Shown here in pieces: positions 2,642 to 56,027 of a DNA stretch of 64,000 bases; position 1 is the stretch's first letter; the number at the start of each line of letters is the position of its first letter. The position numbers were made by a program, and so were the translations under genes. The stretch is from Akkermansia muciniphila (GTDB lineage Bacteria > Bacillota > Clostridia > Oscillospirales > CAG-272). The stretch covers positions 21,014 through 85,013 of the forward strand of contig CAVDSZ010000007.1 of assembly GCA_963611795.1 (NCBI GenBank). Reading direction: 5' to 3'. Under the pieces are notes generated by a model. The model searched no databases and had not been told where the DNA came from. It saw only the letters and a program-made list of their open reading frames with translations.

Positions 2642-3457
2642 TTAGGTATGCGGCTGTTTTTTGCGAATGAAAATCGTGAGCTCCACCCCGTCCTCCGTCT
2701 CTTTTTTTTCGCACCCTGTCTGCATTCCGGCACCGCGCATGATGTGCAGGGCGCGGTTGAGGGAATTGTAGAAAAGACGCAGGTCGGTAATGGAGCCTTT
2801 GACGCTTTTTCGTTTTGTCCCCGCCTCCCGCGCGAGCAATTCTTCAACATAATGCTCCGTTTGCGCGACATTGAGATTCTTTGCGATGACATGATTGAGC
2901 GCGGCGCGGCGACGCTTGGGGTCGGACAGGCGCAGGAGCGCCCGCGCGTGCCGCTCCGTGAGCCCGGCGGCGAGCAGATCCTGCTGCTCGTCCTCCGTGA
3001 GCCGCAGGAGCCGTAGCTTGTTTGCGATATAGGACTGCGAGACGGAGAGCCGCTCGCCCAGCTCCTCCTGCGTCACGCCGTACTGTTTCAGAAGCAGGGA
3101 AATCGCAGTCGCCTCCTCGAAGGGGGTGAGATCGCGCCGTTGAATGTTCTCGATGATCGCAAGCTCCGCGCTCTGCTCTGCCGAGATATGCAGGACGCGG
3201 CAGGGGACGCGTCCAAGCCCCGCGATGACCGCCGCCCGAAGACGCCTCTCGCCCGCAATCAGTTCATATAGGACGCCCGAGTCGCCGTAGCGGCGGCGGA
3301 CGGTCAGTGGTTGCAGGATGCCGTACCGACGGATGCTGTCCGCGAGTTGATACAGCTCGTCCTCCGGGAAGTCGCGGCGCGGCTGTGCCGGATTGGGCAG
3401 AATCAGGGCGGGGTCGATTTCTTCCTCCGCCGATTTTGTGGTGACTGTACATTCCAT
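2642..3457 (-). CDS. ParB-family protein, Noc (nucleoid occlusion)-like
   Basis: ParB box ILPNPAQPRRDF...LADSIRRYGILQPLTVRR...YELIAGERRLRAA, then HTH GVTQEELGERLSVSQSYIANKLRLLRL. The C-terminus DLRLFYNSLNRALHIMRGAG...EDGVELTIFIRKK resembles the Noc tail. I place the start at ATG 3457 (MECTVTT), with AGGAGGT upstream. The track ORF start at 3673 is an unsupported extension. Confidence 0.75.
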   Translation of the reverse strand: MECTVTTKSAEEEIDPALILPNPAQPRRDFPEDELYQLADSIRRYGILQPLTVRRRYGDSGVLYELIAGERRLRAAVIAGLGRVPCRVLHISAEQSAELAIIENIQRRDLTPFEEATAISLLLKQYGVTQEELGERLSVSQSYIANKLRLLRLTEDEQQDLLAAGLTERHARALLRLSDPKRRRAALNHVIAKNLNVAQTEHYVEELLAREAGTKRKSVKGSITDLRLFYNSLNRALHIMRGAGMQTGCEKKETEDGVELTIFIRKKQPHT

Positions 3458-34482: not shown

Positions 34483-34567
34483 GGGGGAATTCCCGAGCGG
34501 CCAAAGGGGGCAGACTGTAAATCTGTTGTCCATGACTTCGCTGGTTCGAATCCAGCTTCCCCCACCA
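34483..34567 (+). tRNA. tRNA-Tyr: tRNA-Tyr (anticodon GUA), long variable arm, encoded CCA
   Basis: Acceptor stem GGGGGAA/TTCCCCC. The anticodon stem-loop is GCAGA-CUGUAAA-UCUGU. The T-arm is GGTTCGAATCC. The discriminator is A, followed by CCA at 34565-34567. Confidence 0.9.
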
Positions 34568-34634
34568 GATTGATTACACGATTCCGCGCGTTCGAGTCTT
34601 TCAACGACCAACTGTGCGGGATAATGAATAAAAA

Positions 34635-34686
34635 ACGGAGAGTTACTTCCGAGTGGGAAGTGGCTTTCCGTTTCTGTTTTTGCTTT
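34635..34686 (+). terminator. Terminator downstream of tRNA-Tyr
   Basis: Long hairpin acggagag...acttcc-gagt-ggaagt...ctttccgt (34635-34671), followed by ttctgtttttgctttt. Confidence 0.6.
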
Positions 34687-35308
34687 TCGAATAGCCGTAT
34701 GTGGCATGGAATGAAATTTCCTTGCCGAGAAACAGCAATTAAGGCACTCTCCTACGCAAAAGATGCCACTTTGCGGACATATAATACTCTAGAATGCATT
34801 TTACTCGGTCGCCGTCCGGTTCAGCCGTCACGGAACTTCCCGAAAAACCTGCAGTTCTCCGTGCTTTTCTTTGACAGTGAAATCCGGGTCGCATTTCAGG
34901 CACTCCGCGTGCGATTCAGCCTGATAAACCCGAGAGCGAATTTGCAAGTTTGATAGGCTGACCTTGCCGCCTCCGAACCCCCGCCATCTGTTCATCACCC
35001 AGACGATGCAAAACTGAAAAAGAATAAATATTCATAATATAAGAAAATTATACATTTTTCGAGGAGTTTCGGTGACGGTTTATAAGGTCGATACCATGGC
35101 GGCGGTGACGGTTTTTGCAACCGGTCGACCGCTCGTTCCGATATGCTTCTCCATTGGTTCATCATCGGTTCGAGGTGTCCGCCGATTATATACAGCGGTT
35201 TGTCCGCACCCTGGGGAACCTTTTTTATGATAAAATAACCAAAAACGGACCGACTGCGGGCTCTGTTTGTGTAATAGTGGATAAATTTGAATTTTTTTGC
35301 TAAAATTC

Positions 35309-35337
35309 TTGCATTTGTGATGAATTCGTGAGATAAT
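35309..35337 (+). promoter_or_regulatory. Promoter of the giant LRR lipoprotein gene
   Basis: TTGCAT (35309-35314), 17 nt spacer, GATAAT (35332-35337). An AGGAGAA RBS precedes ATG 35368. Confidence 0.55.
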
Positions 35338-35367
35338 ATGCCTAATTTTATATAGGAGAAAAAAACC

Positions 35368-38300
35368 ATGCGTCACTATCAGAAAAGTCTGGTCAGCGCG
35401 TTTCTGCTGATCGTTCTTTGTGTTTCACTGTTTTTGCTGGCGGCGTGCGACAAAGGCGGGGACGTTAACCCCACCCCTAAGCCCGACGATCAGACAAAGA
35501 CGGACTATGGAATCGACAACGTCTACTTCATGACGGAGGGAGACGACGAATACCTGTTCACCATTACAGGGAATGCGTTCATGCTCTCCGGTCTGAACGG
35601 AGACCAAAGCGGTACTTTCACCTATGAAAACGGCGTTCTGACGCTCAAGTTCAAGGAGGGAGACAGTACGACTGCTTCCGCCACGATTGAGGACGGCGTC
35701 CTGACGCTTACATACAATGGAAGCACCTACAGAATGCTGCAGCGCAGCAAGTTCACCGTTACCTATGATGTGGACGGCGGCAGTGCGGTCGCGTCTCAGC
35801 AGGTGCTGAACGGCGAGTACGCAACCAAACCGCAGGATCCGAAAAAGGACGGTTGTGCCTTCATTGGCTGGTACACCGATAAGGACTACACGAGTGCTTT
35901 CGTGTTCGACAGTATCGCCATTAAGAAGGATACCACGGTTTACGCGCGCTTTGAGCAACTGATTGGCAAGTCCGAATACACGGCGACCCTTGTGGGCGGC
36001 GACGTCAACTACGCGCCCGTCAAGACCGTGAACGGCGTACTGTACAATCTGCCGACGCCCGCCGCCAAAGACGGTGCGGCATTTATCGGTTGGTGGATGA
36101 GCGACTATCAGAAACCGGACAAACTGACCGCACAGTATGAGGGGCAGGCACTCACGCAGGACGTGATCCTGTATGCTCGCTACGAGGATACGGACGGTGC
36201 GCCTGTGATTTCCGTGACGTCGACGGGGGTCAGTTGGAACTCGCTCGGTACGAACATTGCGTACCATGTGACCGTCCAACTGGACGATACCGTTGTCAAA
36301 TCGACGGATGTCAATGCGACGCGCTACGCATTTGACTTTTCCGCGGCGACTGCCGGTGATTATACGGTAACGGTGTCCGGCAACGGCAAGACCGCGACGG
36401 CGTACTATCGCAACAAGGGGCTGGATCGCGTATCCAATTTCCGCGTGGTGTCCTCCGGTATCCTGGTGTTTGACCCGGTCGCAAATGCCGAAAGTTATGT
36501 GATTACCGCCGTCTGCGGCAATCCGAACCATAAGCATATCGCCGTCAATAACGGCAGCTCGACCAACTATATTTTCGCCAACTGCGATATGCCGCAGAAC
36601 GGTATCACTTTCATCGTCACGGCGAAAGCAAAAGGCTATCTTGATTCGTCAAGCACCTACATCTTCTACCAGGGGCTCGCCACTGTGAGCGGGGTCGAAG
36701 TGAATAATGAGAAAATCACATGGAACCCGGTGGAAAATGCGATGGGCTACCTCGTCAGCCTCTCGAAGGACGGCGAAACCTATACGGACTACTATGTCAC
36801 GAGCGGCACGTCTTATGACATCACCGGCGTTGCGGCAGGGCTTCTCTACGTCAAGGTGAAGCCTGTCAGCACCGGCTATTATGCGGCGCCTGCAGACGCG
36901 GTGAGTTTTGAAAAGACGGTTCTCGCCCGTCCGAGCGGCGTAACCCTCTCCGGCACCAAACTGGTCTGGAACGCGGTGGTAGGGGCAACCTCCTACAAGG
37001 TCACGATTAATGGTACCGTATACGAGGCATCGGAAGCCGCCTTTGTGATGAGCAGCGACGTTCTCACCGACGGCATTGATGCGTATGAAGTGACGGTACA
37101 GGCGATTGCGGCAGACGCGCAGAACAATTCGCCCGTGTCCGAGACGGTCACGGTCAACTACGCGACGGTTTCCGATGTGACCTACCGTGACGGCTATCTC
37201 TACTGGTCGCCGGTTCTGAACGCCAGCAAGTACATTCTCCGCGTCGGCACGTCCGGGGCTGAGATTGAGGTTCCGGCAACTGCCGCTTTCGCTCCGGTGC
37301 CCTTTACCGAGAGCGGGGAAGTGAAGGTCTCTGTCTGCAGTGAGAATGACAACGGTGAGCGTTCCGCATGGGTTTCCACGACGGTGGAGGTCTTTGAAAT
37401 CCTGTTGGATGTCCGCGGCGGCACGGCGGTCACCAGCCTGTACAAGGCATTCGGCGATAGCCTGACGCTCCCCGAGACCACCCGCGAGGGTTATGATTTC
37501 GTCGGCTGGTATCTCGTCCCGAACGGCGTTACCGGCGGCAAGGAATACACGAGCGACAGATTTGACGGCGACGGCGATCTTGTGCTGTACGCCAACTGGT
37601 CTGCCAAGAAGTATACCGTCACCCTGAACTCAGGCGAAAACGGCACGGTGGGGACCGATACGGTCATGGTGATTTACGGCAAACTCAATACACTCCCCAC
37701 GGCGACCTGCACGGACGCGACCAGGACCTTCGTCGGCTGGTTCTCCGAGCCGAACGGTGCCGGTACCCGTTATTTCGACGACAAGGGCGAAGCACTCTTC
37801 AAGTGGAATAACGCCAATGACAACGTCACGTTGTATGCACACTATGCGGAGATTCTGTCCTATAAGGAGATTGACAACGGTAAGGCGTACTCTGTCTCCA
37901 AGGGACCCTTTGGCATCGGTAACCTGACCGAGATTACCATTCCCGCTACCTACAACGGCAAACCCGTGACGACCATCGAGGCTTCCGCGTTTATTTCCTG
38001 CAACACCCTGCAGGTCATCAATATCCCGAACACCATCGAGAGCATCAACACCGGTCTCGACGGCAAAACGGCTTCCTGCTTCCAGGGGTGCTATAAACTC
38101 ACGGCTGTCAACATTTACAGGGTGGAGGGCGCAATCGAGCCGAAGTATTTCTCGGTGGACGGTGTCCTGTACTGCACCGAATACGGCGATACTCAGATTC
38201 GTTACTGCCCGTATGCCAGGACGGGTATTGTGAAGATTGCCGAGGGGACGACGTCGATTCCGATTGGCGTGTTCAGCAGCATCAAGGTGTCCGAAGTGCA

Positions 38301-41300
38301 GATTCCGCACACGGTCACTTACATCGGCAGCAATGCGTTCTACGGCAGTTACCTGAAGAAGGTTGTGTTCCTCGCCGCTCCGGAGGGGACTGATGAAGTC
38401 CCGCTCAAGATGGAGGATAAGGCGTTCTACTACTGCCGTTCTCTGACGGAAATTACCCTCCCGTCCCGTATCACAGAGTTTACCGCCAACACCCTCACAA
38501 GTTGCTACGCACTGACCTCGATTGATATTGTCGGCGAGGGCGGTCTGTACTCTGCGAAGGGTGAGGAGGGCAGAAAGGTCCTCTGCACCGCTGACGGCAC
38601 GACGCTTATCTTCTGCCCGCAGGGCATGGCAGGTGAGTTCACGATTCCGTCCGGTATTGAAACCATCGGGGAAGATTCCTTCTCCGGTTGCAAAGACCTG
38701 AGAAAGGTCATCATTCCCGGCTACGTCAAGACCATTGCCAAGAACGCTTTCAACGGCAACTCCGGCATCACGGACGTTGAGATGGAAGAAGAAGGGCAGC
38801 CTCTCACCATCTGCGAGGCGGCATTCTACGGTTGCTCCGGCCTGACCAAGATCACGCTCCCTGCACGTCTTGTCAAACTCGAGGTCAATGCGTTCGGCGC
38901 GACTTCTTCTCTGGCGGAAGTGACGATTAACGCCATGGGTGCCTCCGCCGGTGAAGGGGAGGAGCCCACAGTCGACTTCGCGGTCGGTGCATTCACGACG
39001 ACGGACGGCAGAAACTCCTATGTGACCGACGTCACGCTCGGCGACAATGTCCCGTACTTTGATATCCCCGGCGTGATCGGCAAGAAACTCCAGAATATCT
39101 ATGTTTCCGATACCAACCCCAACTACTCCTCGGTAGACGGCGTTCTGTTCGATAAGGCGGTCACTAAGGTGGCGTTCTATCCGATTGAGCGTGTCGGCGA
39201 CTATGCACTGCCGGAGACGGTGATTGAGATCGGCGCTGGTGCTTTCCAGGGCAGAACCGAGCTGACCGGCATCACGATCGGCAAGAACGTGAAGTCCATC
39301 GGTGCCAATGCCTTTGAGGGTTGTGTAAAGTTAGCGTCCGTCACCTTTACGGACGGCGGCACGGCAGAACTCTCGATCGGGGACTACGCGTTCAAAGAAT
39401 GTAAGGTCCTGGCGACGCTCAATCTCCCCACCAGCCTGCGGACCATCGGTGCTTACGCGTTTCAGAACTGTACTATTTTGACGGCCGTGAAGATTCCCGA
39501 AGGGGTGACCCGGATCGGGGAAGGCGCCTTTGTCTACTGTAGAGATCTTGAGACTGTATCTCTGCCTTCCACTCTGAAGGAAATTCAGATGGCGACCAAG
39601 AAAACAGTTACCCTCGATGATGTGGGGTCCTGTAACATCTTCCGTGGTTGCCCTAGCCTTACCACCATCACGGTGCCGGATGGTGCCCATTATTTCGGTA
39701 CGATTGACAATATCCTGTACCAGAAGGCGGCAAAGACCGTGACGGACGACGGTGAAGAATCCACCGTTTATGTGGAAGTGTCGCTGTTGTTCTGCCCGCA
39801 GAAGAAGGCAGGCTCCCCTACGGTGACCATCCCCGGTACCGTAACGACGGTCAAGACATGGGCATTCTTCTCCGCTACGACGGTCGAGTCCCTTGTATTC
39901 GAGGATATGACCGATGCGGACGCGACTTTCACCGTCGAGAGTAATGCGTTCTACGCCAGTGCTCTGACGCAGGTGACGCTCCCGAAGGGGCTGAAAGTCA
40001 TTGCAAAAGAACTGTTCATGCTCTGCTCCACGCTGGAGACAATCACAATCCCCAGCACGGTGACCAGTATTGAGAACGGTGCCTTCCGTTCCTGCTCCAG
40101 CCTGACGAACCTGATCTTTGCCGCGCCCGGCAAGGACGATAAAGTGGTTCCGCTGGTCATCGAGGACGCTGCATCTTGTGATAAGTCGCCCTTCTATGGC
40201 TGCACGAGACTCACGAATATCGTATTCCCCGAAAGAATGACGGTGCTCGGTGACTATGCTTTCAGCGGTAAAATGGCTAGTGAGTATGATAGCTCGGACA
40301 TCGTTCACGCCATCAAGTCCGTGACGTTCCCCTCCACGCTCGAGCGCATCGGGCAGTACGCTTTCTACCTGGCGCGTAACCTGACCTCGGTGACTTTCGC
40401 GGATAAAACGGTATTGAAAGACGGCACGTCTCCCGCAATCGGCAACTATGCTTTCAATAACTGCAAGGCGCTCGTGAGCATTTCTTTGCCGGCGGTCGAC
40501 ACCGATAAGCCGTATTCAATCGGCGAATATGCCTTCAGCAGAACGGGTCTGACGTCGGTCACCATTCCTGCCGGGGTCGGCTCTCTCGGTAAAATGTGCT
40601 TCTATTGGGACGAGGACCTGACCTCCGTTACTTTCCTTGACGGAGCGAAGCCTACGTTCGGCGATTTCGTGTTTGATTCCTGCTACGCTCTCCCGAGTAT
40701 CACGATTCCCGAAGGTACGACAGGAATCAGCTCCAGCATGTTTAAGAACTGCAAGTTGCTGACCACGATTACCATTCCTTCGACGGTGACGTCCATCGGC
40801 GGCAGCGCGTTCTCCGACTGTAAAGCGCTGAAGACAATTGTTTTCTCGACCTATGAGAACGACGGGAAGGCGTATTCCCGCATCACCAGCATCGGTGACA
40901 ACGCTTTCACCTCAACGGCGCTGACCTCGTTCGCCTTCCCGACGCTGGAGACCGGCACGCTGTCGCTGGGCAAGAGCCTCTTTACAGGCTGCACGCAGCT
41001 CACGTCGGTGACGCTCTCGAAGTCGGTCGGCTCGATTGACGGCGTGCTCACCGGGTGCTCCTCGATCACGAGTTTCACGGTTGATTCCGAGAACCAGAAC
41101 TTCTCCGCAGTGGAGGGCGACCCGATTCTGTACAATAAGGATCAGACCGCCTACCGTTACATCGTCGGGCTCCTGCTCGGTGAATTCCGCATCAGTGATA
41201 AAATCGAGGAAATCGGATCGAGTGTCTTTGAGAACCAGATTGCACTGACCAAACTGATTATCCCCGCCAATGTGAAGACCATCGGTGACGGTGCATTCAG

Positions 41301-44300
41301 AGGCTGTGCTCTGCTGGAGACCGTGGTGTTTGAGCATAGCGAGGAGAAACCGAGTCAGCTTTCCACGCTCGGCAAGGAACTGTTCAAGAACTGTTATGAA
41401 CTCATCAGTGTGACGCTGCCGGGTAACATGACCGTTCTGCCCGAGTCGATGTTCTACAATTGCTATAAACTCCCGACCGTTACGCTCCCCGATACGCTGA
41501 CCACCATCAGTAAGAATGCTTTCTACGGCTCCGGTCTCGCAACAATTACAATCCCTGCCAAGGTGGCGACAATCGGCGATAGCGCTTTCTATGGCTCTAC
41601 GAGCGGTGGTTTGCTCACGACCGTGAACTTCGCCACGTTGTCGGACGGTTCGACGGCCCTCACGACAATCGGCAACAGTGCCTTTAAGTACCAGGCACTG
41701 GAGTCGATTACGTTGCCGAAGTCGCTGACGTCGCTCGGTACCGATGTCTTCTACAACTGCAAGGAACTCGTCAGTGCTTCACTTGAGAATACGGCGCTCA
41801 CCGTGATTCCCAAGAATACTTTCTATAACTGCACGAGCCTGACCACCGTCAAGCTGCCTGCCGGTTTGACTGCCATCGGTGCTGCGTCTTACAGCGGAGC
41901 CAATGCGTTCAGTGGCTGTACATCGCTGAAGGAAATCACGCTGCCGGATACGGTGACGGTCATCGGTAATTCCGCATTCACCGGTTGTACCTCGCTCGAG
42001 ACGGTCAACATTTCCGCCAGTTCCGGCTTGATAACCATCGGTACGTATGCGTTCCAGAACTGTGAATCCCTGAAGTCTATCTCTCTGCCCGCCAGCATCG
42101 CAACAATCGGCACAACGACATTCAAAGGCTGTAAAGCCCTGACGACGTTCACGATTGCAAGCGGCGCCAAGGCTCTGACAAAGATTGACACCAGTCTCTT
42201 TGAGGGGTGCGAATCGCTAACCTCTATCGCAATTCCGGACAGCGTGACCTCGCTCGGCAAGAACGCCTTCCTGGGCTGCGCCGCGCTGAAGTCCGTGACT
42301 TTCGGCAGCGGTTCCAAGTTGGATACGATTCTTGCCTCCTGCTTCGAGAAATCCGGTCTGGAATCCATCACGATTCCGAAGGGCGTGACCGTCCTCGGTA
42401 CTTCCAAGACCGCGGGGGCTGCCACCTCTTCTGCAAAGCAGTTCCTGGATTGCGTCAATCTTAAGAGCGTTACTTTCGCGGGGAACATCAAACTGCTCGG
42501 CGGTTATGTCTTTCAGAACTGCTCGTCGCTGACGTCCGTCAGTTTCCCGGCGTCCGTTACCCAGATTGGTAACTACTGCTTCGACGGATGCACGCAACTC
42601 GCCACTGCCACCTTTGCCTCCGGCGCCTCCGCGCTGACGATTGGCACCTACGCATTCCGGAACACCGGTCTCACTGCATTCGAGGTTCCCGCCAGAGCCA
42701 CGTCGCTTGGTAAGTATGCACTCAGCGGTAGCGAAAGCCTTGCCACTGTGACCTTTGAGACGAGAACAAAGGCGCTGTCGCTCGGCGATAGCATCTTTGA
42801 GAACTGCACCGCATTGACGTCGGTCGCATTGCCGGACACGGTCACTGCCATCTCGGCGAGTACCTTCTACGGCTGCGAGAAACTTGCGACCCTGACGATG
42901 ACCCAGGTGACCTCTATCGGTGACAGCGCGTTCAGAGATTGCTCCGCACTGACGGAAATTGCGCTCCCCGAGTCGTTGACAAGTATTTCCACCAATGCCT
43001 TTATGGGCGCGGGGCTGACCTCCGTCACGATCCCGAAAAACTGTACGAGCATCGGCAATAACGCCTTTGGCTACTGCCGTTCTCTGATGAATTTCAGCGT
43101 GGCAGAAGGGAATACCACTTTCACCACATTCGACATCACCGAGAATGAGACGGTCCTCCTGAAACTCGGAGCCGAAGAGGGCGATCCGTCCACCATCATT
43201 GCCGCACCGGCTACAGTCACCGATACCGTCACGTGGCCGGAGAACTGCACCATCGGCGGTTACGCGCTGAACGGTATGATGACGACGATGACCTCGCTCG
43301 TGATTCCTGAAGGTGTGACCGAGATCCCGGATTACGCGTTCATCGGCTCCAGTCTGGAATCCGTGACGCTCCCCTCTACGCTGACGAAGATCGGCAAGGG
43401 CGCCTTCAGCGGCTCCAAACTCAAGAGCATCACGATTCCGGCGGCAGTGACCGAATTTGGCGGCTCCGCATTCAAGAACTGCACGAGCCTGACGACCATC
43501 ACCTTTGAGGGTGAATCGCAACTGACCACGCTCGGCACATATGTCTTTGCCGGTAGCGGTTTGACGAGTATCACGCTCCCCGCAGGTGTGACCAACCTCT
43601 ACAAGGAATACTCCGCTTCGTATACTTTCGCGGATTGTGCGTCGCTGACTTCCGTGACCTTCCTCGGGGAGATTACCGAACTGAACGGCTACGCTTTCCA
43701 GAACTGCACGGCACTGCAGAGTTTCACGATTCCGTCTACCGTGAAGGTACTCGGCAATTATCTGTTCGCCGGCAGCGGTCTGACGAGTATCACGATCCCC
43801 GGTACGCTGGAGAGAATGTACATTGCTTCGAAGTATACGCAGACCAGCGCCGGCTATACTTTCCAGGATTGCACTGCCCTGAAGACGGTCGTCATTGAAA
43901 ACGGCTTTAAGTACCTCAACGGCGCATCGTTCAAGGGGTGCACCGCGCTGACGAGTGTCACGTTCCCCGCGAGCGTTACCGTGGTCGGTGCCAACGCCTT
44001 TGAGGACTGTACCGCGCTGACGGCAATCAGTTTCCCGAAGGACATGGAAGCCAGTATCGGTGGCTCTGCATTCAAGAATTGCACCTTGCTTTCCGGCGTG
44101 ACCTTTGCCGCCGGGTCGAAGATTACCAGCATCGGCTCAGAGGCATTTGTCGGCACGGCGCTGACCTCCATTGAGATTCCGGCATCCGTGACCACAATCG
44201 GCGCAAGTGCCTTTGCGGGTTGCACGACGCTGACCTCCGTGACTTTTGCCACCGATTCGCAGGTGAATAGCATCGGTGCCAGTGCCTTCAAGGGAACCGG

Positions 44301-44928
44301 ACTGACCTCTATCACCCTGCCGGAGAATGTCGAAACGCTGACGCTCGGCGCAAGCCTCTTTGAGGGGTGTGCAAACCTCACCAGCGTCACGCTCGGCAAG
44401 TCCGTCAAGGCAATCAGTGTCACGATGTTCTTAAACTGCACGTCGCTTGCCTCCCTGACGATTCCTGCCAACGTGACCACACTCGGGAATGAAGCATTCA
44501 GGGGTTCGGGACTTACCTCGATTACGATCCCCGCGACGGTGACCAAATACGGCAATTCGATGTTCAAGGAGTGTCTCAAGCTGGCAACCGTTGTGTACGA
44601 GGACGGCTGCACGAGAATCGAAAGTTCGACTTTCACCGGTTGCACCGCGCTCACTTCCGTGACACTGCCCGATACGATGACGTACATTGGTATGAACGCC
44701 TTCGAGGGGTGCACGTCGCTGTCCGTGATTGAGATTCCGGCGTCCGTTGTCAACCTGTATAAAGGCGTGTTCAAGGGGTGGACTGCCGAACAGACCATTC
44801 GTGTCAAGGCGCCCAAGACCATCTGCGCCGGCTGGACCTACGGCCTTAATAGCAGTTGGGACGAAGACTGCCTGGCGACAATCATCTGGGACTACGGCAC
44901 GACGCCCACGACGACTACGAACGACTGA
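35368..44928 (+). CDS. Giant (3186 aa) surface lipoprotein: lipobox, lipocalin-like module, InlB B-repeat (Listeria-Bacteroides repeat) units, Fn3-like modules, then a very long BspA-type leucine-rich-repeat array
   Basis: The signal peptide plus lipobox is LFLLAAC (Cys27). B-repeats include FTVTYDVDGG...CAFIGWYTDKDY...TVYARF and REGYDFVGWY. Five V(S/T)W...Y.V modules fall at about aa 278-675. From about aa 855 the units read (I/V)TIP..VT.IG..AF..C..LT.V. There is no LPXTG motif and no C-terminal TM. Confidence 0.85.
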   Translation: MRHYQKSLVSAFLLIVLCVSLFLLAACDKGGDVNPTPKPDDQTKTDYGIDNVYFMTEGDDEYLFTITGNAFMLSGLNGDQSGTFTYENGVLTLKFKEGDSTTASATIEDGVLTLTYNGSTYRMLQRSKFTVTYDVDGGSAVASQQVLNGEYATKPQDPKKDGCAFIGWYTDKDYTSAFVFDSIAIKKDTTVYARFEQLIGKSEYTATLVGGDVNYAPVKTVNGVLYNLPTPAAKDGAAFIGWWMSDYQKPDKLTAQYEGQALTQDVILYARYEDTDGAPVISVTSTGVSWNSLGTNIAYHVTVQLDDTVVKSTDVNATRYAFDFSAATAGDYTVTVSGNGKTATAYYRNKGLDRVSNFRVVSSGILVFDPVANAESYVITAVCGNPNHKHIAVNNGSSTNYIFANCDMPQNGITFIVTAKAKGYLDSSSTYIFYQGLATVSGVEVNNEKITWNPVENAMGYLVSLSKDGETYTDYYVTSGTSYDITGVAAGLLYVKVKPVSTGYYAAPADAVSFEKTVLARPSGVTLSGTKLVWNAVVGATSYKVTINGTVYEASEAAFVMSSDVLTDGIDAYEVTVQAIAADAQNNSPVSETVTVNYATVSDVTYRDGYLYWSPVLNASKYILRVGTSGAEIEVPATAAFAPVPFTESGEVKVSVCSENDNGERSAWVSTTVEVFEILLDVRGGTAVTSLYKAFGDSLTLPETTREGYDFVGWYLVPNGVTGGKEYTSDRFDGDGDLVLYANWSAKKYTVTLNSGENGTVGTDTVMVIYGKLNTLPTATCTDATRTFVGWFSEPNGAGTRYFDDKGEALFKWNNANDNVTLYAHYAEILSYKEIDNGKAYSVSKGPFGIGNLTEITIPATYNGKPVTTIEASAFISCNTLQVINIPNTIESINTGLDGKTASCFQGCYKLTAVNIYRVEGAIEPKYFSVDGVLYCTEYGDTQIRYCPYARTGIVKIAEGTTSIPIGVFSSIKVSEVQIPHTVTYIGSNAFYGSYLKKVVFLAAPEGTDEVPLKMEDKAFYYCRSLTEITLPSRITEFTANTLTSCYALTSIDIVGEGGLYSAKGEEGRKVLCTADGTTLIFCPQGMAGEFTIPSGIETIGEDSFSGCKDLRKVIIPGYVKTIAKNAFNGNSGITDVEMEEEGQPLTICEAAFYGCSGLTKITLPARLVKLEVNAFGATSSLAEVTINAMGASAGEGEEPTVDFAVGAFTTTDGRNSYVTDVTLGDNVPYFDIPGVIGKKLQNIYVSDTNPNYSSVDGVLFDKAVTKVAFYPIERVGDYALPETVIEIGAGAFQGRTELTGITIGKNVKSIGANAFEGCVKLASVTFTDGGTAELSIGDYAFKECKVLATLNLPTSLRTIGAYAFQNCTILTAVKIPEGVTRIGEGAFVYCRDLETVSLPSTLKEIQMATKKTVTLDDVGSCNIFRGCPSLTTITVPDGAHYFGTIDNILYQKAAKTVTDDGEESTVYVEVSLLFCPQKKAGSPTVTIPGTVTTVKTWAFFSATTVESLVFEDMTDADATFTVESNAFYASALTQVTLPKGLKVIAKELFMLCSTLETITIPSTVTSIENGAFRSCSSLTNLIFAAPGKDDKVVPLVIEDAASCDKSPFYGCTRLTNIVFPERMTVLGDYAFSGKMASEYDSSDIVHAIKSVTFPSTLERIGQYAFYLARNLTSVTFADKTVLKDGTSPAIGNYAFNNCKALVSISLPAVDTDKPYSIGEYAFSRTGLTSVTIPAGVGSLGKMCFYWDEDLTSVTFLDGAKPTFGDFVFDSCYALPSITIPEGTTGISSSMFKNCKLLTTITIPSTVTSIGGSAFSDCKALKTIVFSTYENDGKAYSRITSIGDNAFTSTALTSFAFPTLETGTLSLGKSLFTGCTQLTSVTLSKSVGSIDGVLTGCSSITSFTVDSENQNFSAVEGDPILYNKDQTAYRYIVGLLLGEFRISDKIEEIGSSVFENQIALTKLIIPANVKTIGDGAFRGCALLETVVFEHSEEKPSQLSTLGKELFKNCYELISVTLPGNMTVLPESMFYNCYKLPTVTLPDTLTTISKNAFYGSGLATITIPAKVATIGDSAFYGSTSGGLLTTVNFATLSDGSTALTTIGNSAFKYQALESITLPKSLTSLGTDVFYNCKELVSASLENTALTVIPKNTFYNCTSLTTVKLPAGLTAIGAASYSGANAFSGCTSLKEITLPDTVTVIGNSAFTGCTSLETVNISASSGLITIGTYAFQNCESLKSISLPASIATIGTTTFKGCKALTTFTIASGAKALTKIDTSLFEGCESLTSIAIPDSVTSLGKNAFLGCAALKSVTFGSGSKLDTILASCFEKSGLESITIPKGVTVLGTSKTAGAATSSAKQFLDCVNLKSVTFAGNIKLLGGYVFQNCSSLTSVSFPASVTQIGNYCFDGCTQLATATFASGASALTIGTYAFRNTGLTAFEVPARATSLGKYALSGSESLATVTFETRTKALSLGDSIFENCTALTSVALPDTVTAISASTFYGCEKLATLTMTQVTSIGDSAFRDCSALTEIALPESLTSISTNAFMGAGLTSVTIPKNCTSIGNNAFGYCRSLMNFSVAEGNTTFTTFDITENETVLLKLGAEEGDPSTIIAAPATVTDTVTWPENCTIGGYALNGMMTTMTSLVIPEGVTEIPDYAFIGSSLESVTLPSTLTKIGKGAFSGSKLKSITIPAAVTEFGGSAFKNCTSLTTITFEGESQLTTLGTYVFAGSGLTSITLPAGVTNLYKEYSASYTFADCASLTSVTFLGEITELNGYAFQNCTALQSFTIPSTVKVLGNYLFAGSGLTSITIPGTLERMYIASKYTQTSAGYTFQDCTALKTVVIENGFKYLNGASFKGCTALTSVTFPASVTVVGANAFEDCTALTAISFPKDMEASIGGSAFKNCTLLSGVTFAAGSKITSIGSEAFVGTALTSIEIPASVTTIGASAFAGCTTLTSVTFATDSQVNSIGASAFKGTGLTSITLPENVETLTLGASLFEGCANLTSVTLGKSVKAISVTMFLNCTSLASLTIPANVTTLGNEAFRGSGLTSITIPATVTKYGNSMFKECLKLATVVYEDGCTRIESSTFTGCTALTSVTLPDTMTYIGMNAFEGCTSLSVIEIPASVVNLYKGVFKGWTAEQTIRVKAPKTICAGWTYGLNSSWDEDCLATIIWDYGTTPTTTTND
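37930..44790 (+). repeat. Coding array of BspA-type (LRR_5-like) leucine-rich repeats, about 23-25 codons per unit; my rough estimate is on the order of 90 units
   Basis: Visible protein-level periodicity (..LTSVTIP.SVTSIG..AF..C..L..) throughout. The units are diverged at DNA level, and no exact long DNA repeat was noticed by eye. Confidence 0.7.
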
Positions 44929-44961
44929 TTTTGACTCCAAAAACGATATCGTGTTTTTCGT

Positions 44962-44993
44962 CCCCTGCCGGAGACCCGGCAGGGGGCGTTTTT
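44962..44993 (+). terminator. Terminator of the giant LRR gene
   Basis: Stem cccctgccgg-agac-ccggcagggg (44962-44985), followed by gcgTTTTT. Confidence 0.8.
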
Positions 44994-45086
44994 CGATTCG
45001 GGCAGGGACGTCCGAGATGTTTTAGAAATGAAGCACGATTTTTCACAAAAAAGACGCAAAATGGGCGATAAATGCAACAAAAAATG

Positions 45087-45115
45087 TTTACAAGTCTGGA
45101 GGAAAGTGCTATATT
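45087..45115 (+). promoter_or_regulatory. Promoter of the MoxR/vWA/LRR operon
   Basis: TTTACA (45087-45092), 17 nt spacer, TGcTATATT (extended -10, 45107-45115). Confidence 0.6.
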
Positions 45116-45205
45116 ATAATATACATATAATAAGCAGAACTGTGGAAATGTTTTTTCGCCGAAAAGCGTGGAACCGTATCGAAAATGAAACGCGGGAGGA
45201 TTCTT

Positions 45206-46288
45206 ATGAGCAAGCAGAAACGAACAGACACATCGGTATCGGAAGCCGAAAATTTGCTTTCGCAATACCGCACCCGCCTTGCAACAGAGGGCTGGATTAA
45301 GTCCGCGCTTTGCGGTCTGACCGTCGCTTTCGTGCTGAATATCATCTATACGTTTGTCTGCCTCCTGTTCGGCATTAAGGTGTATTGGGTCAGCGCCATT
45401 CTCATTGTCGCGGGCGCGGCGACCACACCGCTCTTCTATTTCGTGAAATTCAGAAAATCGCTCCGGCAGGTTGCGTCCCGCGTGGATACGCTGGGGCTTG
45501 AGGAACGTGTGCTGACGATGGCAGGGCTCGAGGGCGATGACAGTTTTATGGCGCGCCGCCAGAGAGAGGATACCATTCGCGCACTCAAGACCGTGAACGC
45601 GTCACTGATTAAGTTGGCGGTCTCCGTTCCGCTGATTGTGATGTGCGCCACGACTTTTGCCGTGAGTGCCACGACGACCACTGTCAATGCGCTGGTGGAT
45701 CAGCCGCTGCTCGACCTCAGCGGGGAACAAAAAGAAGATGTCTTCTATGATGTGACCTACGAGGTGAAAGGTGAGGGCGGAAGCATTGCCGGTCTTACGG
45801 TGCAAAAGGTGAAGGCAGGCTCGGTTGCAAGTCCGGTACAGGCGATTGCCGAGGACGGATATGCGTTCGCCGGTTGGTCGGACGGGTATGAAGAAGTGTT
45901 CCGCGCCGACGCAGATGTGACCGGTGAGATTCATGTATTTGCCGTTTTTACATTGATTGACGAGAACGATTTACCCGATCCCGGCGATGAAAGCGAGTCG
46001 GAGGGGGATGAAAAGGACGGTTCGAGTAAAGCCGACCAGAGCGGTCAGCAAGCCCCCGGTCAGCCCGATGACCCTGGTGACCCGAGCGACGAAGATCCCG
46101 ATGACGTCGGAGGCGGCGCCGGCGGTGCCTCCTCGCCGAGCAACAAATACATGGATGGCAAGACCTACTACGGCGATGACTACAGTAACAGCCTCTCCGA
46201 CGCGCAGGACGCCATGAATTCCAGTACGGATTTGAGCGGCGACCAGTCGGACGTCATCGGCGACTATTTCAACAATATCGCAAAATAA
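45206..46288 (+). CDS. Membrane protein (about 3 TM) with one InlB B-repeat-like domain and an acidic, low-complexity C-terminal tail
   Basis: TM segments are SALCGLTVAFVLNIIYTFVCLLF, VSAILIVAGAATTPLFYFV and LAVSVPLIVMCATTFAV. The B-repeat is YDVTYEVKGEGGSI...DGYAFAGWSDGY...IHVFAVF. The tail is D/E/G/P-rich. ATG 45206 follows GGGAGG. Confidence 0.6.
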   Translation: MSKQKRTDTSVSEAENLLSQYRTRLATEGWIKSALCGLTVAFVLNIIYTFVCLLFGIKVYWVSAILIVAGAATTPLFYFVKFRKSLRQVASRVDTLGLEERVLTMAGLEGDDSFMARRQREDTIRALKTVNASLIKLAVSVPLIVMCATTFAVSATTTTVNALVDQPLLDLSGEQKEDVFYDVTYEVKGEGGSIAGLTVQKVKAGSVASPVQAIAEDGYAFAGWSDGYEEVFRADADVTGEIHVFAVFTLIDENDLPDPGDESESEGDEKDGSSKADQSGQQAPGQPDDPGDPSDEDPDDVGGGAGGASSPSNKYMDGKTYYGDDYSNSLSDAQDAMNSSTDLSGDQSDVIGDYFNNIAK

Positions 46289-46334
46289 TTTAGCATCACC
46301 CAAAAAGATAATTTACGGAAAAGGGAATATCAAA

Positions 46335-47381
46335 ATGGTTACAGAAGAAAGCATTCAGCAGTTCAGCGCGCTGTGCGAGCGCATTTTCACCGAGACCCGC
46401 AAGGATATGATCGGGCAGGAAGAAGTCGTGAGAAATACGATTATTGCCCTGATTGCAGGCGGTAATATTCTGCTCGAGGGCGTGCCGGGCGTTGGTAAGA
46501 CCCGACTTGTCCGGACGCTCAGTCGGGTGTTCGATCTTCCTTTTTCGCGTATTCAGTTCACCCCTGACCTGATGCCGGCGGACGTGACCGGTACCAACAT
46601 CATCACCAAAGATGAAAACGGGAATTCGACCTTTCGCTTTGAGCCGGGCCCGATTTTCGCCAACCTGATTCTCGCGGACGAAATCAACCGTGCCACGCCG
46701 AAAACGCAGTCCGCTCTGCTGGAGGCGATGCAGGAGCATACCGTCACCGTCATGGGTGTTTCCCGGAAGATGAAAGAACCCTTCTTCGTCCTCGCAACGC
46801 AGAACCCGGTGGAGCAGGACGGTACCTATCCGTTGCCGGAGGCACAGATGGACCGTTTCATGTTCAAGCTTGTGGTGGATAACCCCTCGCTCGAAGATTT
46901 GAAAGGCATCGTTACCATGACGCAGAAGACCATGGGCGAGACCGCCGAAGTCGCCTGCAACGCCGAGCAGCTGCTCGAGATGCGCGAGATTGCGAACCAG
47001 ATTCCCGTCGCCGACGAGGTGCTGGACTTCGCCATGAAGGTGATTGCCGCTACCCAGCCGGACAGCGCGTATGCGTCGGAGGCGGCTAAGAACTACATTC
47101 GTCTCGGTTCCTCGCCGCGTGGAGGTCAGGCGCTGATTTCCGCCGCGAAGGTGCTGGCACTGATGAACGGCAGATTCAATGTGTCTTATTCGGATGTCGC
47201 TACGCTGGCATTCCCGGTACTGCGCCACCGTATGAAGATGAATTTTGAGGCAATCGCCGAGCGCGTCGCTCCCGACACGGTCATTCGCATGATCGTCGAG
47301 GAGGTTGCCAAGAAAAATAAGGTGCATCTCGATGCGAGTGTGTGGAACGCCGCTACGGGAGACAACAGTAAAAACGGATGA
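46335..47381 (+). CDS. MoxR-family AAA+ ATPase (AAA_3)
   Basis: Walker A LLEGVPGVGKT. Walker B ILADEINRATPKTQSALLEAMQE. Also TQNPVEQDGTYPLPEAQMDRF. Confidence 0.9.
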   Translation: MVTEESIQQFSALCERIFTETRKDMIGQEEVVRNTIIALIAGGNILLEGVPGVGKTRLVRTLSRVFDLPFSRIQFTPDLMPADVTGTNIITKDENGNSTFRFEPGPIFANLILADEINRATPKTQSALLEAMQEHTVTVMGVSRKMKEPFFVLATQNPVEQDGTYPLPEAQMDRFMFKLVVDNPSLEDLKGIVTMTQKTMGETAEVACNAEQLLEMREIANQIPVADEVLDFAMKVIAATQPDSAYASEAAKNYIRLGSSPRGGQALISAAKVLALMNGRFNVSYSDVATLAFPVLRHRMKMNFEAIAERVAPDTVIRMIVEEVAKKNKVHLDASVWNAATGDNSKNG

Positions 47382-48274
47382 AATCTTATTTAAACGACGC
47401 ATTCTTCAGTCGTCTGGAGGCGCTTGCATTCAATCTCCGCCGGGATCTCGGCGGGTACTTCGGCGGTAAGCATCTGGTCAATACCTATGGGCAGACCGTA
47501 GAGTTCGCCGATTACCGGGAGTATATGCTGGGTGATGACATCCGCCGCATTGACTGGAACCTGTACAGCCGTTTCGAGAAGTACTTCATCAAGTTGTTTA
47601 CCGACGAGCGGCAGATGCAGGTGCAGATTTACATAGACTGCTCCGGCTCTATGGGGAAGGTCAATCCCGACAAGGGCGCGTACGCCATCGGCGTTGCCGC
47701 CGCCATGGGGTATCTCGCAATCCATAATATGGACAAGGTGTCTTACCACCTGATTCGCGGGGATAAAGCCGAGAATCCGTTCGGCACCATTGTGGGGAAG
47801 ACGGCGTTCTTCCGTGCGATGAAGACCTTGGATCAGACCGAATTTGACGGCGATGCGAACATCTCCAAAGCCATCATCGGGAACCCGAATACCGGGACCG
47901 GCGACGGACTGACAATCGTCATTTCCGACTTTTTCTCCGGCGAAGACTGGAAAAAGGGAATTGATTATCTCGTCTATAAAAAGAAACAGATTCTGCTGAT
48001 GCAGGTCTTTTCACCGGACGAGTTGGATCCTACCTACACAGACAGAATCAACCTTATTGACGCGGAGGCGACTGACCTCGCAGATAGCCGGAATATGAAA
48101 CTCCGCATCAATAAATCCATGCAGCTGGCGTTCCGCGAGGCGGTCACAGCCTTCTATGACGACATCGGTAATTTCTGCAAGAAACGCGGCGCCGGATTCA
48201 TGGCGCTCGACTGCGAAAAGCCGATTGAGCGGCAACTCTTTTCCGAACTGCTAAAACGAGGTACCGTATCTTGA
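47378..48274 (+). CDS. DUF58-domain protein (MoxR partner)
   Basis: EFADYREYMLGDDIRRIDWNLYSRFEKYFIKLFTDE is the DUF58 signature. Start overlaps the moxR stop (ATGA). Confidence 0.85.
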   Translation: MKSYLNDAFFSRLEALAFNLRRDLGGYFGGKHLVNTYGQTVEFADYREYMLGDDIRRIDWNLYSRFEKYFIKLFTDERQMQVQIYIDCSGSMGKVNPDKGAYAIGVAAAMGYLAIHNMDKVSYHLIRGDKAENPFGTIVGKTAFFRAMKTLDQTEFDGDANISKAIIGNPNTGTGDGLTIVISDFFSGEDWKKGIDYLVYKKKQILLMQVFSPDELDPTYTDRINLIDAEATDLADSRNMKLRINKSMQLAFREAVTAFYDDIGNFCKKRGAGFMALDCEKPIERQLFSELLKRGTVS

Positions 48275-50295
48275 GATTACTCCTACCACTCGGACTCCTC
48301 GCTCTTGTCGGAATTCTTCTTCTTATCTTAATTTATATCATCAAGCCGAATTTCCAGCAAAAGTTGATTTCCAGTACATATATCTGGAAATTGAGTCTAA
48401 AATTCAAGAAGCGAAAGATCCCGATCAGCAGGTTGCGTAACATTTTGCTTGTGGCGTGCCAAGTGCTGATTATTACCGCCATCTCGCTGATTCTCTCCAA
48501 GACCGTTTGGGTGCTGAAAGAGCAGATTACACAGCCGGAGGTGGTGCTGATTATCGACTCTTCCGCCAGTATGCGGACGGGCGATGAAGTATCCAACCGC
48601 TATACTCGCGCGGTGGATGAAGCTATCAAAGAGGCGAATAAGGCCTTTGACCGGGACGGGATTGTTTCCGTCATCGTGGCCGGGGGAGAGAACACATACC
48701 TCGCGGAGCGGGCTTATAAGGAAAACAGAGAGCAGGTCATCTCGGCGATGGACGCTCTCCTCGCCGGTGACACGAGTTGCACATACGGATCTGCCGATAT
48801 GAGTGCCGCGGTGGCAATGACGGATCGCGTGCTGCTGGAAAACCCCGACGCGAAAATCTATCTTTACACCGACTCGACATACGCCGGTCTGTCCGATAAT
48901 ATCAGTCTTGTTAATGTTGCGGAAGAGACGGAATGGAATGCCGCCATTCTTGATGCGACCGCCACATATGAGGACAACTATTACACTTTCCGTGTCGAGG
49001 TGGCTTGCTACGGCAGAGACAAGGATCTGACGTTGAGACTGACGGTCAACGGTGCCAACGCCGAGAGCAGTGAAGACACCGCTGCCGGAGACCGGTTGTG
49101 GACGGTGACCGTCCCCTGCATGAATGACGGAGTCTATACGGCAATCTTCAAATATGTGCCGGTGGAGGAGGAACAGGCATTCCTCGATACGCTGGACGAT
49201 ACGACGGTTTTCTATAATATCCCGGTCGGTGCCACCGAGGGGCAGGACGAGCGCGTCTATGCATACCAGTCAGTTTTCGTCACCATCGACGAGCGGGATT
49301 CCATGCCGCAGGACAATGCTTTCAGCCTTTATGGCGGACTGAAAGAGACCGTTAAGATTCAGTATTACAGTTTTGGGACAGACCCGAAAACGGGCGTTTC
49401 CCTCGGTCCGAACATTTTCTTCCAGCAGGCTTTGGCGGCGGTTCAGAAGATTTATGCCGATCGCTGGAATATCGAAATCACGGAAGTCAAGAAGGGCAAT
49501 CCGTACGCGACGGAAGGATTCGATTTCTACATCTTTGAACATGAGATGCCGGCGAAACTTCCCACAGACGGCGTTGTTCTCCTCGCGGATCCGATGTCCG
49601 CACCGGCGGATGCGGGCTTTGAGGTGGAAGGCTATATTGACCGTAACGGGCAAAGTGTTTTCCTCGCGTCCGAAACGCTGCACCCGATTCTCAGCGGAAT
49701 GACGCCGACCAATATTTCGGTCAGCCGCTACACCCAGCTGAAAGTTAAGGATACGGCGTATACCTGTCTCCTCTCTTACGGCGCAGATCCGCTTCTCCTC
49801 GTTAAGAACGGGAAGGAAGCGCGCGTGGCGGTCATGCCCTTTTCGCTACACTATTCCAATCTGCCCCTGCTGGTGGATTTTCCGCTTTTGATTAACAATC
49901 TGTTCGGGTACTTTTTCCCGACGACGGTTGACTCGATGGCAATTGAGGCAGGGGAAGATGTTCTGCTCAACTGCCGCGGGGAGGAACTGACGGTCAGCGA
50001 CGGCGTGAATGAGACGACTTTCAACACATTCCCGGCGAGTATGCGCCTGGATGTCCCCGGCTCCTACACCGTCTCGCAGACAACCTATGCCGGCAAAGAT
50101 GTCGTAGAAACCATTTATGTGAGAATGCCGCGTGCGGAAAGCAATATTTTCGCGCAGGAGGGTGCAATTCGCAGTCCGTATTACGAGATTGACGAGAGCG
50201 ACTACTATGCCGATGTGCTGTTGTATATCGCTTGCGCTTTGGTGGCGTTGCTGATGCTGGAATGGTATCTGCAACACCGCGAAAGCAGTCTTTAA
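48271..50295 (+). CDS. BatA_N (aerotolerance-regulator N-terminal) + vWA domain membrane protein
   Basis: The N-terminus is MRLLLPLGLLALVGILLLILIYIIKP. The vWA MIDAS motif is VVLIIDSSASM. A C-terminal TM reads LLYIACALVALLMLEWY. The TTG start overlaps the DUF58 stop (TTGA). Confidence 0.75.
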   Translation: MRLLLPLGLLALVGILLLILIYIIKPNFQQKLISSTYIWKLSLKFKKRKIPISRLRNILLVACQVLIITAISLILSKTVWVLKEQITQPEVVLIIDSSASMRTGDEVSNRYTRAVDEAIKEANKAFDRDGIVSVIVAGGENTYLAERAYKENREQVISAMDALLAGDTSCTYGSADMSAAVAMTDRVLLENPDAKIYLYTDSTYAGLSDNISLVNVAEETEWNAAILDATATYEDNYYTFRVEVACYGRDKDLTLRLTVNGANAESSEDTAAGDRLWTVTVPCMNDGVYTAIFKYVPVEEEQAFLDTLDDTTVFYNIPVGATEGQDERVYAYQSVFVTIDERDSMPQDNAFSLYGGLKETVKIQYYSFGTDPKTGVSLGPNIFFQQALAAVQKIYADRWNIEITEVKKGNPYATEGFDFYIFEHEMPAKLPTDGVVLLADPMSAPADAGFEVEGYIDRNGQSVFLASETLHPILSGMTPTNISVSRYTQLKVKDTAYTCLLSYGADPLLLVKNGKEARVAVMPFSLHYSNLPLLVDFPLLINNLFGYFFPTTVDSMAIEAGEDVLLNCRGEELTVSDGVNETTFNTFPASMRLDVPGSYTVSQTTYAGKDVVETIYVRMPRAESNIFAQEGAIRSPYYEIDESDYYADVLLYIACALVALLMLEWYLQHRESSL

Positions 50296-50307
50296 GGAGG
50301 CGGAACG

Positions 50308-55958: not shown

Positions 55959-56027
55959 ACGATGTCCCGCTCTGATTCGAGAGGATCGGTTAATTCAGTG
56001 ATTTAAATTTGGTTAGGAAATGAAAAA

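Follow-up and report, generated by a model that had tools for sequence, protein, structure and literature searches.

The window analyzed here, a 64,000-nucleotide (nt) stretch of a metagenome-assembled genome (MAG) of a Clostridia bacterium (contig CAVDSZ010000007.1), contains on its forward strand a giant gene at positions 35368-44928, whose predicted product of 3186 aa and 337 kDa carries a very long array of leucine-rich repeats (LRRs) of the LRR_5 type. The most likely role of this giant protein, to which we assign a probability of about 0.6, is that of a lipid-anchored fibrillar binding protein of a sortase-less monoderm bacterium, with a polarity inverted relative to that of other fibrillar adhesins.

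In the mechanism that we propose, Sec export would be followed by the action of Lgt and LspA, which would tether the protein by its Cys27 to the cytoplasmic membrane, in the outer leaflet. The first ~830 residues would form a stalk of constant length and strong conservation, composed of a flexible linker, a small beta-barrel, and five Fn3-fold modules with a pair of B-repeats on either side. If extended, it would reach ~30 to 40 nm, a value derived from typical domain sizes and not measured on the models, i.e., approximately the thickness of a Gram-positive wall. The stalk would bear a distal rod of ~80 LRR units, arranged in seven solenoid segments joined by beta-hairpin modules and ending in a Cys/Trp cap; by typical domain sizes, ~80 LRR units add an arc of ~40 nm. 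The rod would be a conserved scaffold in which variation is confined to a few exposed positions per unit, to gain or loss of whole units, and to mosaicism in the C-terminal half, a pattern that fits a surface binding external ligands. The giant protein, an adjacent MoxR/DUF58/VWA membrane module, and the two lipoproteins encoded with that module would probably act as one surface complex.

Anchor, stalk, and rod

The N terminus has the features of a type II signal peptide (residues 1-27; 35368-35448, forward strand, as for all features below), in agreement with the lipobox reported in an earlier note on this DNA. The sole hydrophobic segment of the protein, residues 4-33, contains the lipobox L-A-A-C27, with R2 and K6 in the n-region. 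A protein was scored as a lipoprotein if a [LVI][ASTVI][GAS]C lipobox was present within its first ~35 residues, by regular expression and visual inspection. The lipobox Cys lies at positions 25-32 in 94 of 99 orthologues, and Cys27 is conserved in 43 of 43 sequences of the family alignment. Lipidation of the giant protein is predicted from this lipobox, and the genome encodes the enzymes needed, with two matches to Lgt (PF01790) and one to LspA (PF01252) in profile searches.

No LPXTG-like motif and no C-terminal transmembrane (TM) or other hydrophobic segment was found in the giant protein, as the earlier note had stated, and none of the 99 orthologues examined has an LPXTG sorting signal. 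That note had treated the missing sorting signal as a special trait of the protein, a view that does not survive inspection of the genome. The 96.9%-complete assembly gave no match to sortase (PF04203) and none to Omp85, with control genomes positive for both, and a regular-expression scan of the open frames revealed no credible LPXTG sorting signal genome-wide. The absence of LPXTG from the giant protein is ordinary because the genome has no sortase. The same type of scan identified ~134 open frames with a signal peptide II-like start, at least 12 of which exceed 1000 aa, the giant protein being the largest, and most of the complete LRR_5 paralogues also start with a lipobox. Lipid anchoring would thus be the usual route for large surface proteins in this organism. 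For annotation, a remark such as "no LPXTG" should be weighed against the sortase content of the genome.

A precedent for lipid anchoring of an LRR protein in a Gram-positive bacterium is Slr of Streptococcus pyogenes, which has no LPXTG motif, is held by its lipobox, and binds collagen (PMC3105044). Slr differs from the giant protein in being an ~85-kDa protein with 13 internalin-type LRRs, not of the LRR_5 type, and histidine-triad motifs. It also has no Fn3/B-repeat stalk and is encoded in no Bat-like cluster, whereas the giant protein has both.

Some 10 LRR_5 loci were noted in the 2.06-Mb sortase-less genome, and those at contig ends (C31, C6, and C9) may be incompletely assembled. One LRR_5 paralogue of 2497 aa on contig C5 (~C5:41366-43699) had no N-terminal lipobox that we could find and ends with a hydrophobic-looking stretch followed by a charged, Thr/Asp-rich tail; this paralogue may use a C-terminal membrane anchor.

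The stalk was modeled with AlphaFold2 on residues 28-870, using a 26-sequence family alignment. The model (mean predicted local distance difference test [pLDDT] score, 87; predicted template modeling [pTM] score, 0.64) consists of a disordered linker, a nine-strand meander, and then a series of all-beta modules. The linker, residues 28-47 (35449-35508), is rich in Pro, Asp, and Thr, has pLDDT values below 50, and is poorly conserved and gap rich in the family. The meander, residues 48-127 (35509-35748), is a small beta-barrel of nine consecutive strands predicted with high pLDDT and is possibly lipocalin-like, as the earlier note had proposed. That proposal is weakly supported: Lipocalin_4 (PF13648) scored 18.7 bits on residues 28-128, below its 22.4-bit cutoff. 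Among 10 further orthologues, 3 gave sub-threshold matches to lipocalin families, two to Lipocalin_4 (14.8 to 18.7 bits) and one to DUF4923.

The B-repeats and Fn3-like modules that the earlier note had listed were both recovered. B-repeats 1-2 (residues 128-276; 35749-36195) and 3-4 (residues 681-830; 37408-37857) are of the Flg_new/InlB B-repeat type: Flg_new (PF09479) reached 109 bits over the whole protein, above the 27-bit threshold, in two pairs (128-277 and 681-830) of 79.6 and 63.3 bits, and the InlB B-repeat structure 2y5p matched the B-repeats with an E value of 3.5e-6. Between them, residues 277-680 (36196-37407) form five modules of ~80 aa each. Pfam fn3 had no match in this region even at E<=1, and MtxA_IG-like was marginal (26.6 bits). 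The modules are nevertheless Fn3 by fold, as judged from the model: the top Foldseek matches of the stalk were strings of FnIII domains (E values of 1e-11 to 1e-7), among them fibronectin (3t1w, 1fnf, and 6mfa), 6tpw, gp130, LAR, contactin, and the neck of the GhpA grappling-hook protein. An invariant Trp/Tyr pair is kept in each of the five modules in the family alignment. Module 2 also bears a C383..H388.H390..C406.M408 motif (36514-36591) that is 98% conserved among 43 orthologues of 33 to 77% overall identity. No known motif was matched to this cluster of residues, which might bind a metal or hold a loop together by a disulfide.

The LRR_5 solenoid, of the BspA/TpLRR type, occupies residues 865-3118 (37960-44721), a region of ~2250 aa. 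LRR_5 scored 1312.5 bits in the Pfam scan, in 21 stretches (gathering threshold, 27.7), and together with the fold matches this supports the description of the protein as BspA type. The unit is 22 to 23 aa long, with the consensus S-I-T-I-P-x-S-V-T-x-I-G-x-x-A-F-x-G-C-x-x-L. A hidden Markov model (HMM) built from the protein's own units detected ~70 of them, and ~80 were estimated by subtracting the inserts and dividing the length by 23. The earlier note had described a continuous LRR_5 array of about 2300 aa; the repeat type and extent stand, and the continuity does not, as six non-LRR inserts of about 50 to 100 aa each (residues 912-975, 1038-1089, 1177-1279, 1395-1484, 1879-1939, and 2574-2643) divide it into seven segments. 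Most inserts bear an S.DGVL(Y/F)...P motif. An AlphaFold2 model of the distal part (residues 1987-3186; pLDDT, 91.6; pTM, 0.67) has a beta strand every ~23 residues, with insert 6 as a small beta-hairpin bundle. Its Foldseek matches were the gut-bacterial LRR_5 proteins 4gt6 (E value of 2e-13), 4fs7, and 4h09, as well as PcpA and TpLRR (6mlx), the last with a TM(target) of 0.67.

The rod ends in a Cys/Trp cap, residues 3119-3174 (44722-44889), with the motif GW..Q.I...W...W...C.A.I.W.Y conserved across the family and a short helix and strand in the model. No PDB sequence matched the cap, as the matches stop at the last LRR. The remaining codons and the stop codon (44890-44928) correspond to a Thr-rich tail with pLDDT below 50, shared with the nearest relatives only. 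Both the cap and the tail had been noticed before; the cap is found family-wide, and the tail is predicted to be disordered.

Integrity of the gene and variation in the family

The giant gene is one uninterrupted ORF (open reading frame) of 9.56 kb and 3186 codons, as first described, and the longest open frame of the 2.06-Mb genome. The earlier note had also warned that an array of similar coding repeats would be prone to assembly errors. In principle, the gene could be a pseudogene, or LRR paralogues could have been collapsed into it or joined into a chimera: the assembly is a MAG of 39 contigs in which several LRR_5 paralogues sit at contig ends. The DNA sequence itself does not bear out the warning. 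Self-comparison of the gene gave a longest exact repeat of 17 nt and a best long repeat pair of 52 nt at 85% identity, and none of its 20-mers recurs elsewhere in the genome. A k-mer assembler is therefore unlikely to have collapsed the array or built a chimera, and RecA-type slippage is likewise unlikely. The contig of the giant gene measures 120 kb, with 35 kb between the gene and the closer end; intact and collinear orthologues are present in independent assemblies from ENA, NCBI, and Logan, and five independent assemblies of relatives with 80 to 91% identity all carry it intact, at 3177 to 3236 aa. Along with a ratio of nonsynonymous to synonymous substitutions (dN/dS) of ~0.2, these observations make an artefact or a pseudogene scarcely credible. 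The giant gene is real and intact, and its LRR repeats are old and diverged at the DNA level. Protein-level repeats thus need not mean repetitive DNA, a second lesson for annotation.

A search with the N-terminal 860 residues retrieved ~100 proteins that cover the whole stalk, at identities from 93% down to 32%. By their record titles, the carriers are MAGs of uncultured gut and rumen Clostridia. Orthologue length is nearly constant (median, 3089 aa; interquartile range [IQR], 3039 to 3231 aa), and all orthologues end within ~12 residues of the cap. In an alignment of 43 sequences, all modules and inserts are collinear; gaps are almost absent up to residue 1394, and the elastic part is made up of LRR segments 6-7. 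The family is sparsely distributed, with orthologues in 8 of 200 other genomes, or 5 of 97 genera, of the same GTDB family. In a search for related loci with the single giant protein, two true orthologues were found amid many generic Flg_new matches.

Comparison with the relatives of 80 to 91% identity located the variation in the distal half. Indels measured 22 to 23 aa or about two units (48 and 54 aa) and all lie past residue 2000; those upstream of that residue do not exceed 3 aa. Identity to close relatives is ~80 to 96% in the stalk, ~59 to 88% over residues 1300-2000, and ~39 to 60% over residues 2000-2300 in four of the five closest relatives. The most divergent segment is a mosaic LRR region at residues ~1951-2250 (41218-42117), with 39 to 60% identity in relatives that are ~72 to 99% identical elsewhere, and with the 54- and 48-aa indels. 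Within the units of the LRR array, variability peaks at positions 13, 14, and 17, and the core residues are retained.

In the closest relative (P0003), the proportion of synonymous differences (pS) in the mosaic segment was 0.39 to 0.59, against ~0.13 to 0.34 elsewhere, and that of nonsynonymous differences (pN) rose too; in another relative (P0006), pS was modestly raised over a background of 0.23 to 0.62. The pattern of differences indicates the import of a diverged allele by recombination. Positive selection in this segment was considered and rejected, as pS rises with pN in the closest pair and dN/dS is 0.21 to 0.30 in both comparisons. Pairwise dN/dS values were 0.19 to 0.22 overall, 0.07 to 0.15 in the stalk, and 0.13 to 0.35 in the LRR part, and by these ratios the whole giant gene is under purifying selection.

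The earlier note had predicted a hotspot of recombinational length variation and had suggested comparing the locus among strains. Part of this prediction is borne out by the whole-unit indels past residue 2000, all in the C-terminal half, and by the mosaic at residues ~1950-2300. The overall length is near-constant among orthologues, and the repeats are too diverged for slippage of the RecA type.

A binding rod and its alternatives

The giant protein resembles BspA of Tannerella forsythia, LrrA of Treponema denticola, and TpLRR, with which it shares the 22- to 23-aa LRR_5 repeat type and a matching fold, and a surface binding role is expected from this likeness. BspA has a C-terminal domain of the type IX secretion system and far fewer repeats than the giant protein. 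All three are proteins of diderms, whereas the giant protein belongs to a monoderm without Omp85; it differs from them further by its ~80 units in seven segments, its N-terminal lipid anchor, and its Fn3/B-repeat stalk. At the cell surface, BspA and LrrA attach to fibronectin and fibrinogen and bring about co-aggregation (PMC2843621), so that ligand binding is by analogy the most likely function of the rod.

The nature of the ligand is a separate matter. The rod might serve nutrient capture or cell-cell co-aggregation, with partner bacteria, or polymers of dietary or microbial origin, as its targets in the gut or rumen, rather than act as a host adhesin. The habitat of the carriers, the inter-bacterial co-aggregation mediated by BspA and LrrA (PMC2843621), and the presence of about ten LRR_5 paralogues in the genome are all compatible with such a platform. 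Pfam and NCBIfam scans, on the other hand, found no carbohydrate-binding or enzymatic domain in the giant protein. As a distinct explanation, we regard this one as quite improbable, and as nothing separates it from host binding, it is best seen as a sub-case of the binding role.

Under the published concept, a fibrillar adhesin combines an anchor with a stalk and a binding region (PMC9210967). The giant protein follows the logic of stalk plus binding region seen in the fibrillar adhesins of Firmicutes (PMC9210967) and in internalin B, with Flg_new/B-repeats and Ig/Fn3-like domains as the stalk. It departs from them in three ways: it is anchored N-terminally with the binding region at the C-terminal end, its anchor is a lipid rather than a sortase link, and its stalk is made of a fixed number of diverged domains instead of near-identical tandem copies. 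As predicted from sequence and models, the architecture is that of a fibrillar adhesin, with a long stalk of repeated domains, a binding region, and an anchor, atypical in polarity and anchor type. Within the LRR_5 surface proteins, the family is architecturally distinct, and it is uncharacterized.

Two named families were considered for the protein and set aside. The best NCBIfam match was to the streptococcal adhesin HupY/LrrG (NF047961), with 396.3 bits over 12 stretches against an equivalog cutoff of 1250 bits; only the LRR_5 repeats are shared. The Gli349 gliding protein (NF045861) scored 215.7 against 1750 bits, in short scattered stretches that again reflect shared repeats only.

Several observations weigh against a lipid-anchored binding fibril. 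A folded solenoid of this size is far larger than the pores of peptidoglycan. The near-constant length over identities of 33 to 93% is unusual for a variable adhesin and could point to a structural role. Slr, the precedent for the anchor, is described as poorly exposed in broth culture (PMC13470328). Lastly, the conserved, strong terminator-like hairpin that separates the giant gene from the neighboring cluster weighs against assuming co-expression of the two.

An alternative view is that the protein might be an envelope scaffold instead of an adhesin, i.e., a platform of fixed length in the space between membrane and wall or in a surface coat, organized, matured, or held by the BatA-like VWA proteins and the MoxR ATPase. 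The narrow length distribution over ~100 orthologues and the almost gap-free first 1394 residues agree with this view, as do the purifying selection along the entire protein, its size far above the sieve limit of peptidoglycan, and the invariant link to a MoxR/DUF58/VWA module whose two VWA proteins carry TM segments at either terminus. Nevertheless, the characterized LRR_5 proteins are surface-exposed binding proteins (PMC2843621), and the distal half of the LRR region shows unit indels, mosaicism, and variability at exposed positions, which are typical of surfaces that face a changing partner. The patchy occurrence of these orthologues within the GTDB family (8 of 200 genomes) also argues against a core envelope function. 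An envelope scaffold is an unlikely explanation, kept in view by the near-constant length and the invariant partnership with a MoxR/VWA module.

We therefore retain a binding fibril as the preferred reading. A stalk that spans the wall and presents a distal LRR binding region at the cell surface is a reasonable picture, in which both surface exposure and wall spanning are predicted from the architecture. "Major adhesin," the label proposed in the earlier note, is presumptive. No evidence was found for its other suggestion, a phage-receptor-like fiber.

The neighboring MoxR/DUF58/VWA cluster

The giant gene has putative expression signals of its own. A promoter-like site, TGGATA-17-TAAAAT with a TG element (35278-35306), which is a match to the consensus only, lies ~60 nt before the start codon, and a Shine-Dalgarno sequence, AGGAGA (35354-35359), is placed 8 nt before the ATG. 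Thirty nt after the stop codon, an intrinsic-terminator-like hairpin of 13 bp, 11 of them G-C (44959-44988), is followed by a T-run (feature, 44959-44998). A hairpin is kept just after the orthologous stop codon in four loci (L085, L086, L001, and L003), where the stem sequences differ yet remain complementary. Another promoter-like site (45087-45115) precedes the next gene downstream. Given its own promoter-like site and the strong terminator-like hairpin, the giant gene is probably a separate transcription unit beside the cluster. On its upstream side, the window has an AT-rich, gene-free stretch of 0.8 kb (34568-35367) and, before it, a tRNA-Tyr gene (34483-34567) with promoter-like and terminator-like sites of its own.

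Downstream, domain scans and synteny delimit a conserved cluster of seven genes on the same strand (45185-61094), which the earlier note had overlooked in its account of the giant gene. They code, in order, for a TM/Flg_new_2 protein, MoxR (AAA_3), a DUF58 protein, a BatA-like VWA protein, a protein with two VWA domains, an LRR_5 lipoprotein of 923 aa, and a Flg_new lipoprotein of 1688 aa. In the BatA-like protein, a VWA domain lies between two TM segments at the N terminus and one at the C terminus, and the next protein is similar, with two VWA domains. For the LRR_5 lipoprotein, the listed ORF of 945 aa (window positions 53121-55958) overlaps the preceding VWA gene by 70 nt. Its start is more likely the Met codon at 53187 (MKRVTTLL...LLLLTAC), which gives 923 aa and an ATGA overlap; its orthologues have 923 to 931 aa.

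The same downstream order was found in five orthologous loci (88%, 80%, 76%, 55%, and 35% identity), the most distant of which has no MoxR and DUF58 genes, whereas the upstream genes are different in every locus. The orthologue from the same genus is 41% identical to the giant protein, compared with 52 to 55% in three genomes of another genus. The lower identity within the genus and the differing upstream neighbors suggest that the cluster, as a unit, is transferred laterally or has been lost repeatedly. A genomic island recognizable by GC content was looked for and rejected: the cluster has ~54% GC, and the genome mean is 56.6% (standard deviation, 4.6% per 5 kb).

The MoxR, DUF58, and TM-VWA core of the cluster is shared with the Bat (Bacteroides aerotolerance) operons (PMC3557215, PMC5700661). 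Known Bat operons differ in that they occur in diderms and contain no giant LRR or Flg_new lipoproteins, and they do not explain the giant protein. From the constant linkage we infer a partnership of the giant protein with the VWA proteins. A bolder proposal, which we consider rather improbable, is that the giant LRR lipoprotein, the two further lipoproteins, the two double-anchored VWA proteins, and MoxR/DUF58 form a surface apparatus not described before, in which the AAA+ ATPase, from the cytoplasm and by way of the VWA/MIDAS (metal ion-dependent adhesion site) proteins, would govern how the rod is assembled, extended, or engaged with its ligand.

Among the surface proteins predicted in gut Firmicutes, those of the LRR_5 and Flg_new types rank with the most abundant, and almost none has been studied. 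The giant protein would represent a case of very large protein display in a monoderm without sortase, prompting the question of how a lipoprotein of 337 kDa passes through the wall. The family is tractable, owing to its fixed architecture, its high-confidence models, its clear split into a stalk that is conserved and a distal rod that varies, and its constant Bat-like MoxR/VWA partner. The function of such MoxR/VWA modules has itself been open for decades; if the proposed surface apparatus exists, the giant protein would provide a concrete client for these long-enigmatic Bat-type systems.

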